Numbered from the stretch's first letter, positions 5,709-26,538 are shown. The stretch: 64,000 nucleotides of DNA from an uncultured Planctomycetia bacterium (GCA_964460615.1 CAYWPX010000009.1:19509-83508); one strand, 5' to 3'. Notes: a model not told the origin generated them from the sequence alone. Program-made: numbers and translations.

Positions 5709-6380
5709 TTATTTTACCTGTTCGGATAAATCAGTCCAAGGCCAAGTGCTATCAAATGCGTATCCAGGGTTATCTTCCGGATTAGGCAATAAGAACATTG
5801 CCAGATTTCCTACTCCGTACGCTTCTCGGCTCAACCAGAACCACACACCTTTTCCAAACCCAACAAAAGGCTTGTCCTCTTTTGCGCCTTTTATTGCCTG
5901 GCCAGGAAGTTCGGCTATGCCCAAGAATGTATCAGCTGCACCACTAACAAGTTTTTTGCCTACAGGCATTACTAAACCTTCTTTAAGGTCCGGCTTAAAA
6001 ATATCATACTTTGTCCCTTTTTCCCAAGCATACTCTGCATCTAAAGGAACGCCTACGCCTTTATTATCTGCAGGGTTTGCCGTCCAAAATCCAAACAATT
6101 CCAATGCTCCCCAGCCTGTACGTCCGGCAGCATGGCTAATACCGCTAAATATACCGACGATCGCGCCGGTAGTCTTTGACAAAGCTTCATTTTCAATCGG
6201 TTCAATCCCGTTCTCCCAGCCCTTGTAGATCTGGACAGGGAGTTCTACTATGCCTGTCACTAAATTAATAAAACCTCTGACGGCTTTCTTGCCCATTCCC
6301 TGAGCAATAGTATCGTCAGCCGCACTTGCTGTTGATGCTATCATCATAATAGCAATGATGATTACCATTAACTTACGCAT
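5709..6380 (-). CDS. secreted protein with duplicated G-x-x-E-L-P-x-Q-x-x-K-G motif domain (resembles exosortase-associated small secreted protein families)
   Basis: 223 aa. Signal peptide ending SASA, internal duplication RGFINLVTGIVELPVQIYKG / SGAADTFLGIAELPGQAIKG. The overlapping + ORF 5653-6228 was judged spurious. Confidence 0.5.
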   Translation of the reverse strand: MRKLMVIIIAIMMIASTASAADDTIAQGMGKKAVRGFINLVTGIVELPVQIYKGWENGIEPIENEALSKTTGAIVGIFSGISHAAGRTGWGALELFGFWTANPADNKGVGVPLDAEYAWEKGTKYDIFKPDLKEGLVMPVGKKLVSGAADTFLGIAELPGQAIKGAKEDKPFVGFGKGVWFWLSREAYGVGNLAMFLLPNPEDNPGYAFDSTWPWTDLSEQVK

Positions 6381-17876: not shown

Positions 17877-18595
17877 TATTTAAATATTTTACAGTGGACC
17901 GACATGCCAAACTTAAAATATTTATTAAAATCATCTGATGCATCAAGCGGGAATATCCTGACTTTAAAAACTTTCTCCGGTAAATAATAGTACCTTGAAA
18001 ACATTTTGGGCATTTGATCTATCTCGGCATAAACAAACTCTATCTTACCCTTAATTTTTTTGTCTTTAATGCTCGACCAGACCTCGGCCTCCTGCCCCAC
18101 TCTCACGTTATTGATAAAGCGAGCAGGAACAAATGCATCTATCCAATACCGTTTGGGTTTTGTAACACTATAAATCACATCTCCTTTGTTAACTATATCC
18201 CCAACGGATTTATTTTTTTTGACTATCACCATTTCATAGCTTGCCCTTATGTCTTTGGATAATCCTCCGGCTTCGTCAGAAGCTTTGATGAGAGCAATCG
18301 TACTCCCCTCTTCAACCCTTGCGCCTGTTTCAGCATAAAGCTGGCTTATCTTTCCGTCTATAGGGGAAGTAATGCTAGATAGATCCATATTCTCCATTTC
18401 TAGCTGCATTGGACCCATTACTACACCATTAACAAATAAAGTATCCAATGTCAAAAACCTCCAAACAACAAATGGTGTAGCTAAAAATATTATAAAGAAT
18501 ACAAACTTGACTATTTTCGGCAGACCCTTCTTAGGGCTTTGACGTTCGGCTTGAGCCTTATTTACAGTAAACGCCTCTATCTTTCTTAGTCTCAT
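17876..18595 (-). CDS. HlyD-like periplasmic adaptor / membrane-fusion protein (short form)
   Basis: 239 aa. N-terminal TM anchor, biotin-lipoyl-like SPIDGKISQLYAETGARVEEG and a beta-barrel domain. 1-nt overlap with the GT2 gene. Confidence 0.55.
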   Translation of the reverse strand: MRLRKIEAFTVNKAQAERQSPKKGLPKIVKFVFFIIFLATPFVVWRFLTLDTLFVNGVVMGPMQLEMENMDLSSITSPIDGKISQLYAETGARVEEGSTIALIKASDEAGGLSKDIRASYEMVIVKKNKSVGDIVNKGDVIYSVTKPKRYWIDAFVPARFINNVRVGQEAEVWSSIKDKKIKGKIEFVYAEIDQMPKMFSRYYYLPEKVFKVRIFPLDASDDFNKYFKFGMSVHCKIFK

Positions 18596-20049
18596 ATAGT
18601 TTTCCCTGACATATTAATTAGTTTATTTAATAGCTCTTCATCAGTTCTGCCATCCTCAGGGTAAGAAACTGACGATACTTTAACGTTAATATGCTCCCTA
18701 CTGGTATACTCATTAAGCTTTTTATTTATAAAACGTTCCAGCTCCAGGGCCTTAGATTTATCGGCCTCCGGAAGAAGAGTAATTAAAGCGCTCTTGTCGT
18801 AACGGGCGTGTATGTTTATTTTCCAGAGATTCTCCTTTAGAAGGGTCGCTATGTCATTAAGCATCCTCCTGGCTCCACTAAAACCGGCCTTTTTGGTCAA
18901 TTCATCAAAATTGAGGACATTCACCATAACAATGGAAAAATGCTCTTTGAATTTTTCAGCACGGTCTAACTCCTCATCAAGTCTTTTCTTAAAATACCGG
19001 TTACTATATACCTCAACATCAGTATCAAGCAGTATCTGGTCCATGTTCAAATCTATAAATCTCCCCGACTCTACAACACCAGCCGCATCTTCGGTAATAG
19101 GATATTTAAATATATCCTGCCTCATAGCATTATCGATCTCAAATATTTTTTTGCAATTCCTGCATTGAGCGCTTACATCCGGTTCGGTGAACTTTTCTCC
19201 GTTATCATTACATACGAAACTTTGCCCCGGCTTATCATAATCCACCCCTATCTGCTTTAATTCATGCTCGCATTTTGGGCAGATGTACTGCGTCCCCTTT
19301 TTAAATTCTTCTTCAATGCCGGTATAGCCGCACCTGAAATGGTGGATCATTTCAACTATTGATATATTTGCGCTATGGGTAGTCGGACACGTCTCTCTGA
19401 TATTTATATCGTGATGCATGCAATATGGGCATAGAAGGACCCTGTCAAAAAATCTTTTTTCAAAACACCCTTTATTAACCAAAAATTCGATATGATCTAT
19501 TTCGCTTCCGTCATTGACTTTAAAAAAATTTGCGGCAATTGGATAGCCATAACCGCTCAGGGAATTCATATTATATTCCGGGATCAATTCCTTAATGTTA
19601 TTATCCAGCATACTTTTCAGGAAATCCACTCTCAACTTGTCTTCTTTGGATATGACCGGAGGTTGAGTGGTTTTTTTAGCCCTCCTCAAAACAACTTCTA
19701 TCCTGGCTATAAGCTCCTGGGCATCATAGGGTTTGGTTATGTAATCATCTATACCGAATTTAAAAAATTTTACCTTATCTTCCATACCGGATCTCGCGGT
19801 AAGGGCAATGGCAGGAATAGCTGATTTTTTGGCATCGGCATGCAACTTCTGAAGGACTTCAAATCCATCCATCCCGGGCATCATAATATCAAGGAGTATC
19901 AAATCCGGAGTATTGGTATCCGTATAGAGCAGAGCTTCTTTGCCGCTTAAAACACTATGAACATTGAACCCCGCGTTTTCCAATCTCATAGTTAAAAGCC
20001 GGCTAACATCCGGTTCATCATCTACAATAAGAATATTCCCTTTTGCCAT
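18592..20049 (-). CDS. response regulator: REC + Cys-rich (zinc-ribbon-like) middle domain + degenerate GGDEF domain
   Basis: 485 aa. REC motifs (VDDE, LILLDIMMPGMDG, ALTA, KPY). CPYC..C..C..CPKC..C..CRNC cluster. C-terminal GGDEF fold with RYDKSAL replacing RYGGDEF and no RxxD I-site. Confidence 0.75.
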   Translation of the reverse strand: MAKGNILIVDDEPDVSRLLTMRLENAGFNVHSVLSGKEALLYTDTNTPDLILLDIMMPGMDGFEVLQKLHADAKKSAIPAIALTARSGMEDKVKFFKFGIDDYITKPYDAQELIARIEVVLRRAKKTTQPPVISKEDKLRVDFLKSMLDNNIKELIPEYNMNSLSGYGYPIAANFFKVNDGSEIDHIEFLVNKGCFEKRFFDRVLLCPYCMHHDINIRETCPTTHSANISIVEMIHHFRCGYTGIEEEFKKGTQYICPKCEHELKQIGVDYDKPGQSFVCNDNGEKFTEPDVSAQCRNCKKIFEIDNAMRQDIFKYPITEDAAGVVESGRFIDLNMDQILLDTDVEVYSNRYFKKRLDEELDRAEKFKEHFSIVMVNVLNFDELTKKAGFSGARRMLNDIATLLKENLWKINIHARYDKSALITLLPEADKSKALELERFINKKLNEYTSREHINVKVSSVSYPEDGRTDEELLNKLINMSGKTI

Positions 20050-20070
20050 ATTTTTATCCTCTGGTAAATG

Positions 20071-21456
20071 CTATTGTTTTATATTTAATTCTTCCGGATG
20101 GTTTGTATAATATTTTTTCATTTTAATCAAAATATCATCCATTGAAGTGGAAGGTATAAAATTTAAAATTCTTTCAAGCTTCCTCAGATCAGGAATGCGC
20201 TTTCTTATATCCTCAAAATTGGTCCCATAATATTTTTCGTAATCTTCAAATTTTATTTGCGAAGAACTTCCGGTAATATTTATTATACGCTGGGCAAGGT
20301 CACTTATGGTTATATTATTATTACTTCCGAGATTTATCAGCTGACCGTTTGCATCTTTGGAATTAGCAAGTCTTATGATTATCTCTACGGCGTCTTCAAC
20401 ATATGTAAAACACCTGGACTGTTTCCCGTCCCCGTAAATAACAAGCGGTTTATTATTAAAGGCGTTATAAAAGAATCTCGGTATAACCATTCCAAAATTC
20501 CCGACCTGACCCGGGCCTACTATATTAAAAAGCCTTACCACAACAACCGGGAGATTCCTTTCCTTATGATACGCTATCGTGAGAAATTCATCAAGTAATT
20601 TTGAACAAGCATAGCTCCACCTGTTAACATCAGGGGGCCCGATAACGACATCATTATCCTCTCTAAAAGGAAGCTGGTCGGATTTGCCGTAGACTTCGGA
20701 GGTTGAGGTGAGAAAAACCTTGATATGTTTTTGTGAAGCATATTTCAGGACTAACTCAGTCCCGTAAGTATCATTTATTATGGTATCAAGAGGCCTGTCG
20801 ACAACATTTTTAACTCCTACCGTAGCCGCTAAGTGATATATCATATCGACTTTATCTATCAGTTTACTTATAAGCGCTTCATCAGTAACAGATCCTCTCG
20901 TTAAATTAAAATTTTTTAAACCTGCCATATCCTCAATATTTTTTTCTCTGCCCGTAGAAAAATCATCTAATACATAGACGTTATATTTCATTTTTACAAG
21001 CACCCTTGCCAAATGCGAGCCTATAAAACCGGCCCCACCGGTAACAAGAATATTATTAATGGTATTTTTGGCGGCATCCTTTGACCTTCGTAAGACTGCA
21101 TTAACTCTGCTTATGAATTCCTCTGCCTCAAATGGCTTTGTTATATAATCATCCGCTCCCAGATCAAGGCATTTAACCATGTTTGACGACGATTGATCCG
21201 CCGTAAGCATTATAACCGGGATAAAAGCGGTTTTTCTATCAGAGCGGATCTTTGCCAATAGAGTATACCCGTCCATATCAGGCATCTCGATATCCATAAT
21301 GATAATATCGGGGATCTCTTTTTTTAAATATTCCAGGGCATCAATCCCGCTTGCGACTGCGGAAGCAATAAAGCCGGATTTATTTAAGCGCGGCAGAAGC
21401 ACCTTGCCGACTTCCCTTTCATCATCGATTATTAATACTTTTGGTACTGGCGACAT
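20071..21456 (-). CDS. REC domain fused to NAD-dependent sugar-nucleotide epimerase/dehydratase (extended SDR, UDP-glucuronate decarboxylase/UXS-like)
   Basis: 461 aa. N-terminal REC (IDDE, IIIMDIEMPDMDG, MLTA, KPF), then VTGGAGFIGSH Rossmann, catalytic SxS...YACSK (YxxxK). Confidence 0.85.
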   Translation of the reverse strand: MSPVPKVLIIDDEREVGKVLLPRLNKSGFIASAVASGIDALEYLKKEIPDIIIMDIEMPDMDGYTLLAKIRSDRKTAFIPVIMLTADQSSSNMVKCLDLGADDYITKPFEAEEFISRVNAVLRRSKDAAKNTINNILVTGGAGFIGSHLARVLVKMKYNVYVLDDFSTGREKNIEDMAGLKNFNLTRGSVTDEALISKLIDKVDMIYHLAATVGVKNVVDRPLDTIINDTYGTELVLKYASQKHIKVFLTSTSEVYGKSDQLPFREDNDVVIGPPDVNRWSYACSKLLDEFLTIAYHKERNLPVVVVRLFNIVGPGQVGNFGMVIPRFFYNAFNNKPLVIYGDGKQSRCFTYVEDAVEIIIRLANSKDANGQLINLGSNNNITISDLAQRIINITGSSSQIKFEDYEKYYGTNFEDIRKRIPDLRKLERILNFIPSTSMDDILIKMKKYYTNHPEELNIKQ

Positions 21457-21461
21457 ACGTC

Positions 21462-22802
21462 CTATCTCCTATTCTTTCTATCCAGGATGATCCTTCTGAT
21501 TTCAGCCCTGATCTTATCCGGATCGTGACGGACTACTTCTGTTTCATTTGCTATATCGGCTATAACAATACGAGCTTTAGTAATTTTTTTGATTTCGTTG
21601 ATATCATTAATAAAGACGGGGAATTGATTTTTTTTGGAATATTTTTTTACTGAACTCTTGGATAATTTATTTGTATCGTTTATTAATATATAATCCAAGC
21701 TATCCGATTTAAGATATTTTATAATTTCGCTGATATGATTAGCCGCATCAAACCCGTAAGTTTCACCCGGTTTTGTCATAAGATTGCATATATACACCTT
21801 AACTGCGGGCGAATCTATTATAGCATCTCTTATGGCTTTAACTAATAAATTTGTTATAATACTGGTAAACAGATCTCCCGGGCCGATTGTAACCATATCA
21901 GAATTAATGATCGACGAACAAGCGCCTGTATCGGCTTTCGAAGGAGGCTCGTGCCAGCAATCGATGATCTTCAGGGATTTGTCCCGCCCAACCCCAAGAT
22001 CAATATTGCTTTCGCCTTTAATAACTTTACCATTTTCAAATTTTGCACATAAGGTAGGATTTGTTATTGTGGCAGGATTTACTATCCCTTTAATATTAAG
22101 TATGTCGCCCATGGCCCTGACCGCTTCAGGCATCGAGCCGGTAATATCGGATAAGGCAGTGATAAGCAAATTACCTAAGCTATGACCGCTAAGGCCCGGG
22201 GCCTTTTTAAATCTGTACTGCATTACTTTATCCATTAGATCCGGAGTGGTGGATAGAGCGACCAGATTCCTTCTTATGTCTCCCGCCGGGATCCCGCCAA
22301 AAGCCGCCTTAAGCCTTCCCGACGAACCGCCATCATCACTGGTGCTTACTATGGAGGTCAAAAATACATCATCGAGTTCCTTTAACCCCATTAAGAGATT
22401 AAATAATCCCGTCCCTCCCCCAATAGATGAGACCCTGTACTTTTTTTCAAATACTGCTTTGACTTTTAATAGGATCTCCCTGTGGTTAAAAGGCTTGGAC
22501 AAAAAGTCCTTGGAGCCGTATTTTTGAAAATCAAAGACATCCTCCAGGCTTTCGGAGAGAGAAGAAATAAAAAAAGGGATTTTAGAAACTTCAACAATAT
22601 TAAGGTTTTTTTGGAATAATACAGGATTGCTTTTGTAGGAATCTTTATCAAATACTATAATGTCCGGCGAGAAATCGATCAATGCAGATTTCAAAGTTTC
22701 GAAATCAAATACTCTTTTAACCTCTAAAACAAGTTTTGATAGAAAAGGCTTGATATCTTCTACAAACTTATCGTTTCCAATCAATAAAAATCTTTTATTC
22801 AT
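21462..22802 (-). CDS. REC-like receiver domain fused to YvcK/CofD-like (UPF0052) domain
   Basis: 446 aa. N-terminal ~125 aa with receiver pattern (LIGND, IIVFDKD, FFISS, SKPF), then IGGGTGLFNLL, DDGGSSGRL and PAGDIRRNLVALS motifs of the YvcK family. Confidence 0.75.
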   Translation of the reverse strand: MNKRFLLIGNDKFVEDIKPFLSKLVLEVKRVFDFETLKSALIDFSPDIIVFDKDSYKSNPVLFQKNLNIVEVSKIPFFISSLSESLEDVFDFQKYGSKDFLSKPFNHREILLKVKAVFEKKYRVSSIGGGTGLFNLLMGLKELDDVFLTSIVSTSDDGGSSGRLKAAFGGIPAGDIRRNLVALSTTPDLMDKVMQYRFKKAPGLSGHSLGNLLITALSDITGSMPEAVRAMGDILNIKGIVNPATITNPTLCAKFENGKVIKGESNIDLGVGRDKSLKIIDCWHEPPSKADTGACSSIINSDMVTIGPGDLFTSIITNLLVKAIRDAIIDSPAVKVYICNLMTKPGETYGFDAANHISEIIKYLKSDSLDYILINDTNKLSKSSVKKYSKKNQFPVFINDINEIKKITKARIVIADIANETEVVRHDPDKIRAEIRRIILDRKNRR

Positions 22803-22871
22803 TAAGATTTTTCCTATGAAAATTGTTGTGTAGATGATTGGAGCAAATTTTGCAACTTTTAATCAGATTGA

Positions 22872-22900
22872 AATATTTGCTTTAAGTATTTATCTGTCAA
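22872..22900 (-). promoter_or_regulatory. candidate promoter (TTGACA-17-AATATT) upstream of the REC-fusion operon
   Basis: rc of 22895-22900 = TTGACA; -10-like AATATT at 22872-22877; ~70 nt upstream of the ATG at 22802. Weak -10. Confidence 0.3.
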
Positions 22901-23079
22901 ACAATTATATCATAGGGCATTGATATTTCAATATAAATATAAATGGCCAATAATGACACAAGCTGTAGCTATTTCAATGCATTCAAATGACCCATTTCGG
23001 TCTAAAAACAAAAAAATATGGCAAAGATGCATAGAAGCAAACAAATACTTTTCTTCCAAAATCTTTGCCATTAAAGCTC

Positions 23080-23190
23080 TTATTTTTTACAGACACATTC
23101 ACTCGCTTTCTTTTTGCATCCGCTGCAAACCCCTTTTTCGATTGGCTTGCCACAATTCTTACACGGTGTACACCCGCAAACTTCGCACAT
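23080..23190 (-). CDS. small Cys-rich peptide (36 aa, 11 Cys), metallothionein-like or precursor-peptide-like
   Basis: MCEVCGCTPCKNCGKPIEKGVCSGCKKKASECVCKK. GGGGGTGA Shine-Dalgarno 6 nt upstream. TATAAT-like -10 ~70 nt upstream. Not in the ORF track (<60 aa). Confidence 0.4.
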   Translation of the reverse strand: MCEVCGCTPCKNCGKPIEKGVCSGCKKKASECVCKK

Positions 23191-23411
23191 GTTAATCACC
23201 CCCGCTCTAAGATCTTTCTATATGGAATTGCCAAAAAAATGTTAAAAATTAATATTAATTATACAGCATATTAAAAAAAAGAAAATTGGCAGATTCTATT
23301 ACTATTTGACTTTTTTCTACCTATAGATAATTTAGAATGTTTTGCATATGCTCTTAATAGGGGTAAGCACATATTCTTAAGATATTGTAAAATTCCATAA
23401 TTTTAGAATCC

Positions 23412-23965
23412 AAAATTAAGAAATTTTAGCAACAATCGCATGGACAAAAAATAAACCTCTTATTTTTTTAAGAGGTTTTAATTGAATTTTGCCCCTCGTT
23501 TTGCCTAAATTGCTTCTTCTCGACGCAATTTACGGCAACTCGGGATTGGTGAGCCGCCCGTGACTCTCCCGACGCAATCCTTTGGATAGGTCGGGATTCC
23601 GACTTACCTGTTTTATGGGTAACGTCGGAAGAACACGGCGTATCTACCAATGAATAAAATTGAAAGACTGAGAGGGTATATGTCCATGCGCTTAAAATAG
23701 TACTAAAATTCCTTAATTTTCAAGAACACAAAATTAAGAAATTTTAGTATTAATCGCATGGACAAAAAATAAACCTCTTATTTTTTTAAGAGGTTTTAAT
23801 TGAATTTTGCCCCTCGTTTTGCCTAAATTGCTTCTTCTCGACGCAATTTACGGCAACTCGGGATTGGTGAGCCGCCCGTGACTCTCCCGACGCAATCCTT
23901 TGGATAGGTCGGGATTCCGACTTACCTGTTTTATGGGTAACGTCGGAAGAACACGGTGTATTTGG
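23412..23965. repeat. Two ~232-bp direct repeats (23412-23643 and 23731-23960, period ~319 bp). Each contains a bidirectional terminator hairpin and the 3'-terminal 20 nt of tRNA-Lys(TTT).
   Basis: Near-identical blocks. tggtgagccgcccgtgactc at 23548-23566 and 23865-23884 equals the tRNA 3' end at 24143-24162. ORFs 23468-23650 and 23786-24001 lie inside the repeats and are likely spurious. Confidence 0.85.
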
Positions 23966-24103
23966 TATTAACGGTATCGGGATTGGGGGGCTATTACGCA
24001 CATGCTCTTAAAGAGAAATGCCGATATTCTTAAGATATTGTAAAAATTCCTTAATTTTAATTACAAAATTAAGGAATTTTTACAATAAGAATATGGACCA
24101 AAA

Positions 24104-24142
24104 TAAAAAATCATTCTTAATTTTAAGAATGATTTTTTATTT
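24104..24142. terminator. bidirectional rho-independent terminator abutting the tRNA-Lys(TTT) 3' end
   Basis: aaaaaatcattcttaa-tttt-aagaatgatttttt: perfect 11-bp stem flanked by A- and T-tracts. Confidence 0.7.
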
Positions 24143-24218
24143 TGGTGAGCCGCCCGTGACTCGAACACGGCACAACCACATTAAAAGTGTGGTGCTCTAC
24201 CTGATGAGCTAGCGGCCC
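24143..24218 (-). tRNA. tRNA-Lys (anticodon TTT), encoded CCA
   Basis: rc reads GGGCCGCTAGCTCATCAGGTAGAGCACCACACTTTTAATGTGGTTGTGCCGTGTTCGAGTCACGGGCGGCTCACCA. Anticodon loop CTTTTAA. Confidence 0.85.
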
Positions 24219-24566
24219 ACGTTAAACTTAAATCTAAATTTCAATACTAGGCAATCTGACTGATGTCGCTTTGTTGATGTCCCAAAAAACTTAAGTTTTT
24301 TGGGATGAATTAGCTCTTGATCCTTAAAAACTCGTTTTTCTGCCTGCTGCCTTAGGGCAGTCAGGCAGTAATCATGATCTAATTCTACGGCCCACGTTAA
24401 ACTTAAATCTAAATTTCAATACTAGGCAATCTGACTGATGTCGCTTTGTTGATGTCCCAAAAAACTTAAGTTTTTTGGGATGAATTAGCTCTTGATCCTT
24501 AAAAACTCGTTTTTCTGCCTGCTGCCTTAGGGCAGTCAGGCAGTAATCATGATCTAATTCTACGGC
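24216..24566. repeat. Tandem 175-bp repeat x2 (+ partial third) between frr and tRNA-Lys(TTT). Each unit carries a perfect 24-bp palindrome cccaaaaaacttaagttttttggg and an imperfect GC hairpin ctgcctgctgcc-ttag-ggcagtcaggcag.
   Basis: Units 24216-24390 and 24391-24565 are near-identical; the unit boundary includes the first nt of the tRNA 5' end (cggccc). Confidence 0.85.
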
Positions 24567-24588
24567 CCCCTTTAATTCAAAATCTAAA

Positions 24589-25149
24589 CTATATCGCTGT
24601 TAGTTCTTTTTCTTTTGCAGCTAAAACCTGATCAACTTCTTTTATAGTCTTATCTGTAAGCTTCTGGATATCGTCCTGACCCTTGAAGCTGTCATCTTCT
24701 GTGATGAGGTGGTCTTTTTCACCTTTTTTAATATGTTCATTTGCATCGCGTCTGATCGCCCTAAGAGAAACCCTGGCGTCTTCTGCCAGTTTCTTAACAA
24801 CCTTTGTAAGTTCTTCGCGCCTTTCCTGTGTAAGCTGTGGTATTGAGATCCTTACAACTTTGCCATCATTGATTGGATTAGCTCCGAGATCTGATTTCTG
24901 GATAGCTTTTTCAATCTCTCCTAAAGCATTCAAGTCCCAAGGCTGAATGACAATAAGTTTCGGATCGGGAGCAGAAATATTGCCAAGCTGCTTTATCGGA
25001 GTCATAGTCCCGTAATAATCGACCTTTATGCTTTCAACTAAAGATGCCGACGCCCGGCCGGTACGAACAGTAGATAGATCCCTGTGTAATACTTCCATGG
25101 TCTTTTTCATCTTCATTTCTGTATCGTGGATAATATCTTTTACCGACAT
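24589..25149 (-). CDS. frr: ribosome recycling factor
   Basis: 186 aa, full-length RRF similarity. Confidence 0.95.
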   Translation of the reverse strand: MSVKDIIHDTEMKMKKTMEVLHRDLSTVRTGRASASLVESIKVDYYGTMTPIKQLGNISAPDPKLIVIQPWDLNALGEIEKAIQKSDLGANPINDGKVVRISIPQLTQERREELTKVVKKLAEDARVSLRAIRRDANEHIKKGEKDHLITEDDSFKGQDDIQKLTDKTIKEVDQVLAAKEKELTAI

Positions 25150-25151
25150 AT

Positions 25152-25868
25152 TTACCCCCTCACAAGAGTTCCAATTTTTTCACCGGTTAAAACTTTTTTG
25201 ATATTTCCGTGCTTTGTCAAATTAAACACTATTAACGGCAACCCGTTATCCATACAGAGGCTTATAGCAGTTGAATCCATAACCTTTAAGCCTTTTTTGA
25301 GTACGTCTATATATTTAACCTCTTTAAAAAATTTCGCATTTTTATATTTCATAGGATCCTGTGAGTAAACACCGTCAACCTTTGTCGCTTTAAGTATTAC
25401 ATCGGCATTAATCTCAACAGCCCTTAAAACTGCCGTAGTGTCAGTAGTAAAATAAGGATTGCCTGTTCCGGCTACAAAGATCACTATCCTTCTTTTTTCT
25501 AAATGTCTGATAGCTCTCCGCCTAATATACGGCTCGGCGACCTGCTGAATATTTATTGCAGTCATTACTCTGGTATACGTCCCAAGCTTTTCCAATGAAT
25601 CCTGCAGAGCCAATCCGTTTACAACCGTAGCAAGCATACCCATATAATCCGCAGTAGAACGGTCTATACCGAGCTTTTCAAGTGTTGCGCCTCTGACTAT
25701 ATTGCCGCCGCCAATAACAACCGCAACCTGAATACCAAGGTCATGGACCTCTTTGATCTGCTTACAAATAGAATTAACTGTTTTGGGATCAATTCCGTAA
25801 CCAAGATTTCCCTGGAGGGCTTCACCACTGAGTTTTATTACGATTCTTTTATATGCAGCTTTTGCCAT
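25152..25868 (-). CDS. pyrH: UMP kinase
   Basis: 238 aa. KLSGEAL and GGGNIVRG motifs. Confidence 0.95.
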
Positions 25869-25935
25869 TGATTGTAGCTCATAGTTCAGAGCTCATGGCT
25901 CATAGAAAAATCTACAAGCCATTAGCTTAAGTTTT

Positions 25936-26538
25936 TTATTCGCCTAATTGGAATCTTACAAATCTCTTTATCAGGATATTCTCGCCGATCTTACCTACTA
26001 AGACGCTCAAAAGATCCTTTATTTTAATTGCCTGATCTTTAATAAAAGGCTGCTCTAATAAACAAACCTCTTCATAATATTTTGATAATCTTCCCTGAAC
26101 GATCTTCTCTACAACTGCATCGGGCTTGCCTTTTGCTGCGCCTTCTTTGGCCTGAACCGTCAAGATCTCGATTTCCCGATCAATAGAAGCCTGAGGGACC
26201 TCATCCTTTTTGACATAAAGAGGATTTGCTGCGGCAACCTGCATAGCTACATCTTTGACAAATCTCTTAAAGTCCTCATTTTTTGCAACAAAATCCGTTT
26301 CGCAGTTAACTTCAACCAATACGCCTATTTTCCCGCCAAGGTGTATATAGCTTTCGATTACACCCTGCTTTGCTTCTCGGGTGGCTTTCTTTTCGGCTTT
26401 AGCTGCGCCTTTTTTTCTTAGTATCTCAATAGCCTTCTCTTCATTGCCGCCTGCTTCTTTAAGGGCTTCCTTGCAATCCATCATTCCGGCGCCCGTTCTT
26501 TCTCTTAATTGTTTAACTAAATTTGCATCTATATTCAT
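25936..26538 (-). CDS. tsf: elongation factor Ts
   Basis: 200 aa. LRERTGAGMMDCKEAL signature. Confidence 0.95.
   Translation of the reverse strand: MNIDANLVKQLRERTGAGMMDCKEALKEAGGNEEKAIEILRKKGAAKAEKKATREAKQGVIESYIHLGGKIGVLVEVNCETDFVAKNEDFKRFVKDVAMQVAAANPLYVKKDEVPQASIDREIEILTVQAKEGAAKGKPDAVVEKIVQGRLSKYYEEVCLLEQPFIKDQAIKIKDLLSVLVGKIGENILIKRFVRFQLGE

Follow-up and report, generated by a model that had tools for sequence, protein, structure and literature searches.

A nine-cysteine mini-protein gene of an uncultured bacterium belongs to a conserved, unnamed family with a possible link to oxygen defence

A 64,000-nucleotide (nt) stretch of DNA from an uncultured Planctomycetia bacterium (GCA_964460615.1, CAYWPX010000009.1:19509–83508), which is referred to at its full length as the window and numbered from its first letter, was found to carry a short cysteine-rich open reading frame (ORF), Cys9, on the minus strand. 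The ORF runs from an ATG at 23190–23188 to a TAA stop codon at 23082–23080, and its translation is a product of 36 amino acids (aa), MCEVCGCTPCKNCGKPIEKGVCSGCKKKASECVCKK. Both coordinates and translation were exactly those given in an earlier reading of the locus (hereafter the sequence-only reading), except that the peptide contains 9 cysteines and not 11; the motifs listed in that reading also sum to nine. The cysteines are located at positions 2, 5, 7, 10, 13, 22, 25, 32, and 34, and the peptide further contains eight lysines and no histidine. On the minus strand, the ORF is preceded by rpsB, tsf, pyrH, frr, tRNA-Lys(UUU) (24218–24143) and two tandem repeat units of approximately 300 nt, and it is followed by a REC-like/CofD (YvcK-type) gene (22802–21462) and genes encoding REC-epimerase, REC-TackOD1-GGDEF, HlyD, a family-2 glycosyltransferase and an outer-membrane efflux protein. 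The placement of the ORF between a REC operon and tRNA-Lys was thus confirmed, with the tRNA and the repeat array on one side and the first REC-type gene on the other. RpsB is 100% identical to a database protein and its named close relatives are all Candidatus Omnitrophota, which places the window in an Omnitrophota genome. The following features were located at or next to the ORF:

23080–23190, minus strand: Cys9 coding sequence, 36 aa, from translation; homologues 53–86% identical and all starting with Met-Cys; under purifying selection, chance excluded.
23196–23203, minus strand: Shine-Dalgarno sequence GGGGGTGA, 5-nt spacer, GTG 23199 inside it; same type of motif at homologous loci.
23258–23263, minus strand: TATAAT, a possible -10 hexamer judged from its sequence; promoter scan negative.
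23002–23071, minus strand: intrinsic-terminator-like hairpin and AUAUUUUUUUGUUUUU, from RNA folding; similar structures at 33 of 78 homologous loci.
22904–22931, minus strand: sigma-70-like promoter of the REC-like/CofD gene; promoter scan, 11 of 12 matches.

The strong Shine-Dalgarno motif (23203–23196) had been noted before with a distance of 6 nt to the ATG; the motif itself was confirmed, but the spacer (TTAAC) is 5 nt long. A GTG at 23199, given as an alternative start by the ORF lister, was rejected, as it is located inside the Shine-Dalgarno sequence and the homologues all begin at ATG-Cys. Directly 3′ of the stop codon, the hairpin (23071–23018, followed by AUAUUUUUUUGUUUUU) had a folding energy of -22.2 kcal/mol (z = -3.0); 200 shuffled sequences were all less stable. 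The promoter at 22931–22904 (TTGAAA-16-TATAAT with TG) serves the downstream REC-like/CofD gene. Since Cys9 has its own ribosome-binding site and terminator, and since the next gene has a separate promoter, the ORF looks like a separate mono-cistronic unit, that is, a transcription unit of its own as judged from these signals.

That Cys9 is a real gene, conserved and coding for a protein, is virtually certain. Its location in a repeat-rich intergenic region, the similarity of its 3′ end to the terminator loop of the neighbouring repeats (19 of 22 positions), and the absence of the exact product from the gene-call collection, in which neither the 36-aa nor the 39-aa product was found, might raise the suspicion that the ORF arose by chance in AT-rich intergenic DNA or is a piece of the tRNA-Lys-associated repeat array. 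However, when the window was simulated 200 times with a second-order Markov model, ORFs of at most 60 aa never reached nine cysteines (mean maximum 4.8, largest 8), and the runner-up among the short ORFs of the window contained five. The G+C content of the ORF was 43%, compared to 27% in its flanks. In addition, 222 homologous genomic stretches were shown to keep the reading frame, the start, the Shine-Dalgarno sequence, the cysteine pattern and a coding pattern of substitution. Codon-position entropy in the family columns was 0.53, 0.42, and 1.40 for positions 1, 2, and 3, respectively, and substitutions relative to the window codons showed a mean proportion of synonymous differences (pS) of 0.89, which is saturated, and a mean proportion of nonsynonymous differences (pN) of 0.19. 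The pS and pN values together with the third-position variation therefore show a translated gene under strong purifying selection. Taken as refuted by the simulation, the genomic homologues and the substitution pattern, the absence of a gene was given practically no probability. The sequence-only reading had named loss of the frame in relatives, or a non-coding pattern of substitution, as grounds for giving up the gene, and clearly neither was found. An RNA gene at this locus was also considered and dropped, as an Rfam search of 20000–26000 returned only the tRNA.

For the first homology search, the query was padded with seven upstream in-frame residues, and it retrieved a 37-aa metagenomic protein with 78% identity. 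When 1.84 billion cluster representatives were searched exhaustively with phmmer, 18 clusters were obtained at E < 1e-3; a profile search of a 5.8-billion-cluster collection gave 94 proteins, and a pattern scan of one genome per species gave the 222 stretches encoding a relative. All 94 proteins were named "hypothetical protein" in their sources, save one with an obviously spurious label. The best 80 of the 222 genomic loci, all from metagenome-assembled genomes and assigned by record titles, were distributed as follows: 35 in Planctomycetota (including Brocadia, Jettenia, Pirellulales, Phycisphaerae, and Sedimentisphaerales), 20 in Thermodesulfobacteriota or "Deltaproteobacteria," 13 in Omnitrophota, 5 in Nitrospirota and 7 in others, including Nitrospinota. 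No relatives were found in plasmid, phage and viral collections, where the low-complexity filter of BLAST may mask weak matches, and the idea of a mobile element was rejected on this basis. Motif strings such as CGCTPCK and MCQSCGC occurred in no paper of the literature searched, and a keyword search combining Omnitrophota with cysteine-rich small proteins gave nothing relevant. Cys9 is thus a sharply defined, unnamed family of cysteine-rich mini-proteins covered by no Pfam or NCBIfam model.

The check for conservation and retention of the cysteine pattern in relatives, which had been proposed earlier, showed that the nine cysteines and the exact start are kept across phyla. The family signature is M-C-x2-C-G-C-[TSA]-P-C-x2-C-G-x2-[IV]-x3-[VL]-C-x2-C-x6-C-x-C followed by a variable tail, or in short form MCxxCGC[TSA]PCxxCGx7CxxCx6CxC; a homologue from Brocadia/Jettenia or ORM2a, MCQACGCTPCKTCGKPIEKGVCSGCSKESSSCTCKRKA, serves as an example. 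In an alignment of 63 sequences, M1, the nine cysteines, G6, P9 and G14 were invariant. Every copy starts with Met-Cys, and a AGGAGGTG-like motif was found 5–9 nt upstream of the same ATG in nearly all of 79 homologous loci. Among 77 distinct genomic sequences, 76 contained exactly nine cysteines; the exception, L049 (6001–6153, Phycisphaerales), contained 13 by a tandem duplication of its C-terminal VCSGCx6CxC unit, which hints that the C-terminal four-cysteine half may be a semi-autonomous module. Variants that had lost cysteines were scattered singletons, e.g., P0008 without C2 and C10 and P0102 without C13, and were too few to partition the sites.

The core comprises 34 residues of fixed length and showed 53–86% identity to the window peptide across several phyla. 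Net charges between +7 and -26 occurred among the members, the commonest form being the lysine tail that the window peptide also has. What is conserved as the functional unit is therefore the core with its nine cysteines and not the basic tail, and a ribosomal or nucleic-acid-binding basic peptide was rejected as the general function on account of this range. Members from Pirellulales (Planctomycetota; P0009, P0015, P0021–P0031 and others, and loci L029, L058, and L062) carry tails of 10–60 residues of poly-Asp/Glu that nearly always have an aromatic residue at the end (..DYS, ..DYN, ..DW, or ..EW), with charges down to -26.

Searches of Pfam and NCBIfam with the window peptide and the 63 members gave nothing above threshold (NCBIfam matches inspected up to E = 10 for the window peptide and up to E = 1 for the members, Pfam matches up to E = 1 for the members). 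The sole Pfam match of the window peptide was zf_C2H2_13 (E = 0.18), and a zinc-finger model was also the commonest sub-threshold match among the members (21 of the 63, best E = 0.03). True rubredoxins and a desulforedoxin of 42–53 aa encoded next to Cys9 genes were used as positive controls and scored E = 2.6e-25, 2.7e-24, and 1.1e-18 with the same library; the negative profile result is therefore not explained by the shortness of the peptide. In a sequence-profile search of the PDB, a miniaturised rubredoxin (E = 0.29) and the zinc ribbons of three proteins, eL37, bL32 and MutM, were matched below threshold.

An AlphaFold2 model had a mean predicted local distance difference test score of 80 and showed strands at residues 17–18 and 21–22 forming a β-hairpin between two cysteine knuckles. 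These knuckles, C10xxC13 and C22xxC25, are invariant and flank the predicted hairpin in the layout of a zinc ribbon, and the middle of the peptide thus looks like a zinc-ribbon or rubredoxin-type knuckle pair. Zinc-ribbon modules (eL37, bL32, Pfam Zn_Ribbon_1) were the best profile matches of the family and resemble Cys9 in its central C10xxC13G-x8-C22xxC25, although at E of only 0.02–0.2, below threshold, and no described zinc-ribbon family was matched above threshold by profile or fold. Compared to these modules, Cys9 has five additional invariant cysteines at both termini (C2xxC5xC7 and C32xC34) and is a free-standing 34-residue core that is not part of a larger protein. The sequence-only reading did not notice the wide spread of the family, this knuckle-like core and the recurrence beside oxygen-defence genes described below.

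At the homologous loci, the 149 immediately adjacent genes fell into 142 Pfam families, and a conserved operon partner was therefore rejected. A terminator-like hairpin with a T-run was present within 110 nt of the stop codon at 33 of 78 loci (approximately 42%), and loci from Thermodesulfobacteriota were found to have a strong promoter of their own in common, TTGACA-N17/18-(TG)nCAATACT. This promoter was detected in L028, L034, L037, L039, L043, L045, L059, L063, L065, L073, and L080, 35–45 nt upstream of the Shine-Dalgarno sequence, and was kept across otherwise different neighbourhoods; its spacer is partly conserved (CCTCC[A/G]ATT) and could, from its sequence, be an operator.

Neighbours related to redox or to defence against oxygen and reactive oxygen species (ROS) were found at 20 of the 79 loci, in four phyla, and at 16 of the 79 when only superoxide dismutase (SOD), rubrerythrin, flavodiiron protein, rubredoxin, desulforedoxin and hemerythrin were counted. 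The neighbours were:

Fe/Mn SOD: 6 loci.
Metallophosphoesterase-rubrerythrin fusion: 4 loci, always the adjacent gene.
WrbA/FMN reductase: 6 loci.
Flavodiiron protein: 3 loci.
SthA-like flavoprotein: 4 loci.
Hemerythrin: 1 locus.
Rubredoxin within 1.5 kb: 6 loci, in L038 only 60 nt upstream (from a re-scan for genes shorter than 70 aa).
Desulforedoxin-like gene 49–50 nt upstream: L011 (Omnitrophota) and L032 (Thermodesulfobacteriota), each preceded by the rubrerythrin fusion (same re-scan).

In the fetched loci, these redox and oxygen families gave 22 matches among 413 ORFs at gene ranks 1–3 compared to 1 among 351 at ranks of at least 4. The gene order Cys9, WrbA, rubredoxin, flavodiiron protein was shared by L037, L039, and L063. 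The same cluster of a metallophosphoesterase-rubrerythrin fusion, a desulforedoxin-like gene (40–50 aa, PF06397, E = 1e-18) and Cys9 was observed in L011:510–2038 and L032:4572–6111 (ORM2a), continuing in L032 with a gene for a hemerythrin-domain protein; the fusion protein itself seems unusual.

Besides, at five loci from Omnitrophota (L001, L022, L077, L075, and L009), the Cys9 gene was located at most 32 nt, on the same strand, from a stand-alone REC gene belonging to one orthogroup, with 45–68% mutual identity compared to approximately 30% to other REC domains. The members of this orthogroup (approximately 125 aa; L001:5584–5973, L022:3882–4256, L077:5595–5966, L075:6131–6550, and L009:5461–5838 and 5859–6236) carry the C-terminal motif IPIIAMTG(F/Y)...C(G/A)IKKCLKKPF, with two cysteines in most members.

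We propose that the Cys9 product is a cytoplasmic metal-thiolate mini-protein of a conserved family, tied to redox and oxygen-stress defence, a statement to which, taken as a whole, we give an even chance. Binding of metal through the cysteines is, judging from the sequence, very probable. The gene would be independently transcribed and efficiently translated, giving an abundant cytoplasmic mini-protein in which nine thiolates would bind either a small cluster or one or two metal ions. C10xxC13G and C22xxC25 would form a tetrahedral M(Cys)4 site of the zinc-ribbon or rubredoxin type, and C2xxC5xC7 and C32xC34 would converge into a second metal site or into a thiolate cluster with the first. 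The protein would be a metal/thiol module, redox-active or redox-sensitive, that serves anaerobes in their defence against oxygen and ROS, in a network of rubredoxin, desulforedoxin, rubrerythrin, flavodiiron protein, SOD and WrbA. Its part there could be that of a partner in electron transfer or of a buffer or sensor of thiol and metal, and in Omnitrophota it may signal through the dedicated single-domain response regulator. A bolder version makes Cys9 a third class of mini metal-thiolate redox protein beside rubredoxin and desulforedoxin, acting in O2- and ROS-detoxifying electron transfer of uncultivated anaerobes (Omnitrophota, anammox and other Planctomycetota, Thermodesulfobacteriota, and Nitrospirota) and doubling in Omnitrophota as the sensory partner of the dedicated REC in a two-gene redox- or metal-sensing module; this version we regard as doubtful.

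Several observations weigh against the proposed role in oxygen defence or against its details. Approximately three quarters of the loci have unrelated neighbours, and no oxygen-defence genes were found in the 64-kb window. Many of the loci with redox neighbours are related by descent, leaving approximately eight independent arrangements. The comparison of gene ranks is subject to ascertainment bias because the families were picked for their recurrence near the gene. Where rubredoxin or desulforedoxin is already adjacent, an extra electron carrier would be redundant. Structure searches gave no significant fold match, metal binding is argued from the sequence, and nine cysteines exceed what two tetrahedral sites need. 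At the window locus, the -10 hexamer reported earlier as TATAAT-like was shown to be a perfect TATAAT (23263–23258, 68 nt 5′ of the ATG), but it lacks an acceptable -35 partner and the consensus promoter scan made no call there, so that a possible Cys9 promoter in the window is marked by a -10 hexamer only.

In its way of working, Cys9 would be most like rubredoxin and desulforedoxin or a small metallothionein, yet every profile test was negative and it is a member of no sequence-defined family tested. One narrower alternative to the metal-thiolate module proposed above is a miniature iron-thiolate electron carrier, analogous to rubredoxin (approximately 52 aa) and desulforedoxin (36 aa), in which one or two Fe(Cys)4 sites would receive electrons from the NAD(P)H-flavin reductases (WrbA) and hand them on to rubrerythrin, flavodiiron protein or enzymes that reduce superoxide. 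Cys9 shares with these proteins the size class of 36–53 aa and two CxxCG knuckles, and its pair C2xxC5 and C32xC34 resembles desulforedoxin, in which a CxxC is combined with a CC. The family is restricted to anaerobic or microaerophilic lineages, and at a minority of its loci it lies, as rubredoxin and desulforedoxin do, next to genes for rubrerythrin, flavodiiron protein, SOD or WrbA, often adjoining rubredoxin or desulforedoxin genes themselves, as in the same-strand clusters Cys9-WrbA-rubredoxin-flavodiiron protein and metallophosphoesterase/rubrerythrin-desulforedoxin-Cys9; the weak match to the miniaturised rubredoxin points the same way. However, neither the window peptide nor any of the 63 members matched PF00301 or PF06397, models that detect the true neighbours at E = 1e-18 to 1e-25. 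Cys9 has nine cysteines and not four, and the conserved aromatic core of rubredoxins has no counterpart in it, its own core being free of aromatic residues; iron binding is putative. Besides, several loci already have a rubredoxin or desulforedoxin gene alongside, a terminator-like hairpin separates Cys9 from WrbA in L037 and L063, and most loci have no redox neighbour. We consider such a carrier unlikely.

A metallothionein in function, i.e., a buffer that sequesters Zn(II), Cd(II) or Cu(I) in a thiolate cluster of the M3Cys9 type, likewise has only a small chance of being correct. It is favoured by the small size, the absence of a signal peptide, the invariant cysteine positions, a cysteine content of 25% (9 of the 36 residues) and the CxC and CxxC motifs, as in the cytoplasmic metallothioneins (SmtA/BmtA, PF02069; mammalian β-domain), where cysteine amounts to approximately 25%. 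Nine is also the number of cysteine ligands in the M3Cys9 cluster of the β-domain of mammalian metallothionein and of cysteines in cyanobacterial SmtA, which has a zinc-finger-like fold and the ligand set Cys9His2. In contrast to bacterial metallothioneins, Cys9 shows no sequence relationship: neither the window peptide nor any of the 63 members (at E up to 1) matched PF02069, and the only hit to a metallothionein model was one member to Metallothio_Euk at E = 0.66. Mixed Cys/His ligation was not indicated either, since no conserved core column is His. Metallothioneins are variable outside the cysteines, whereas the non-cysteine positions of Cys9 are unusually conserved across phyla. No ArsR/SmtB, MerR or CsoR regulators or metal exporters recur near Cys9 genes (ArsR, MerR and CsoR were not among the 25 most frequent Pfam families of the 149 adjacent genes), and the neighbours indicate oxygen defence and not metal resistance. 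Of the metallothionein likeness suggested in the sequence-only reading, a metal-thiolate role thus stands as the natural reading, while membership in the family does not. The same reading had also suggested a thiol-rich precursor peptide, and this idea fared worse. A precursor of a ribosomally synthesised and post-translationally modified peptide, of the SCIFF/ranthipeptide kind, would be short, cysteine-rich and encoded in anaerobes as Cys9 is, and a gene for a B12-binding radical-SAM protein was found approximately 1 kb away at two Omnitrophota loci, L006 and L033. Radical-SAM nevertheless did not figure among the neighbour families that recur, Cys9 has no conserved maturase, protease or exporter gene adjoining it, and none lies beside the ORF in the window, as had been stated correctly before. 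There is no leader, since the conserved cysteines begin at residue 2 in all copies, no match to NCBIfam, which presumably includes a SCIFF peptide model, and the core is conserved in length and sequence across phyla far beyond what is expected of such a precursor core. A precursor peptide is close to refuted and very improbable.

A structural zinc-finger micro-protein without redox chemistry of its own, acting as a regulatory adaptor for a partner, in Omnitrophota the adjacent single-domain response regulator or REC-fused enzymes, is in our view quite improbable. The five close REC pairings in Omnitrophota, the position of the window gene ahead of three REC-type genes and the highly conserved surface residues, which suit a conserved partner, are consistent with it. 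C(P)XCG zinc-finger micro-proteins of Haloferax volcanii (e.g., HVO_2753 and HVO_0758) are shorter than 70 aa and contain the C(P)XCG motif at least twice, are mostly encoded by stand-alone genes and have regulatory or pleiotropic roles, although some members do not bind zinc (PMC11241148, PMC10716476). Cys9 falls under this operational definition (PMC11241148) with C2EVC5G6 and C10KNC13G14, and also has a CSGC, which places it in a motif class and does not imply homology. The archaeal class shows no detectable sequence similarity to Cys9, which is bacterial and has extra CxC motifs. Moreover, the REC pairing was seen in one phylum only, the window has no orthologue of the paired REC (best 36%), REC-CofD orthologues elsewhere have no Cys9 gene nearby, and tails with charges from +7 to -26 speak against a single nucleic-acid or protein surface that all tails would have in common.

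Downstream of Cys9 in the window (18592–22802, minus strand), three successive genes encode N-terminal receiver-type domains fused to enzymes, namely REC-like with CofD/YvcK (the REC part not being seen by Pfam), REC with NAD-epimerase/dehydratase, and REC with TackOD1 and GGDEF. Together with the HlyD, family-2 glycosyltransferase and outer-membrane efflux genes that follow, this suggests a phosphorelay-controlled operon for polysaccharide synthesis and export. Orthologues of REC-CofD from metagenomes (at most 47–51% identical) had no Cys9 ORF nearby, and the position of Cys9 upstream of this operon is therefore not conserved.

On the other side of Cys9, just downstream of tRNA-Lys(UUU) (23385–24110, minus strand), the tandem units 23405–23643 and 23723–23961 are 97% identical at a spacing of 318 nt. 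Each unit contains an exact copy of the last 20–21 nt of tRNA-Lys (GAGTCACGGGCGGCTCACCA), a unique stretch of approximately 95 nt, a terminator hairpin (AAACCTCTTAAAAAAATAAGAGGTTT and a T-run) and an AT-rich palindrome that is also present after the real tRNA. No Rfam match was obtained for the units, and they look like repeated att-type integration scars at a tRNA or a duplicated tRNA-derived small RNA. A public assembly of the same genome breaks exactly at this region. The last codons and stop of Cys9 (23072–23093, TCTGTAAAAAATAAGAGCTTTA) match 23452–23473 and 23770–23791 at 19 of 22 positions, where the terminators of the repeat units (family D4) have their loop and 3′ arm; this likeness could be due to chance in AT-rich DNA or be a trace of the arrival of the gene at the site.

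Small proteins routinely escape gene callers, and what was an ORF of 111 nt now stands for a family that a simple signature defines and that at least 222 representative species genomes contain, mostly those of uncultivated anaerobes. Small cysteine-rich "hypothetical proteins" are common, and nothing mechanistically surprising or amounting to a new principle has emerged so far. The family is, however, unusually conserved for its size and confined to anaerobes that have been studied little, anammox bacteria among them, and the identity of 53–86% over a 34-residue core across phyla points to a constrained and probably ancient function. The zinc/thiol buffer or sensor, the iron-thiolate carrier, the metallothionein and the zinc-finger adaptor each predict a different metal content and spectrum, and the peptide is short enough for chemical synthesis. 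The recurrence of Cys9 beside rubredoxin, desulforedoxin, rubrerythrin, flavodiiron protein and SOD genes offers a concrete hypothesis on how strict anaerobes may handle oxygen and metal stress.

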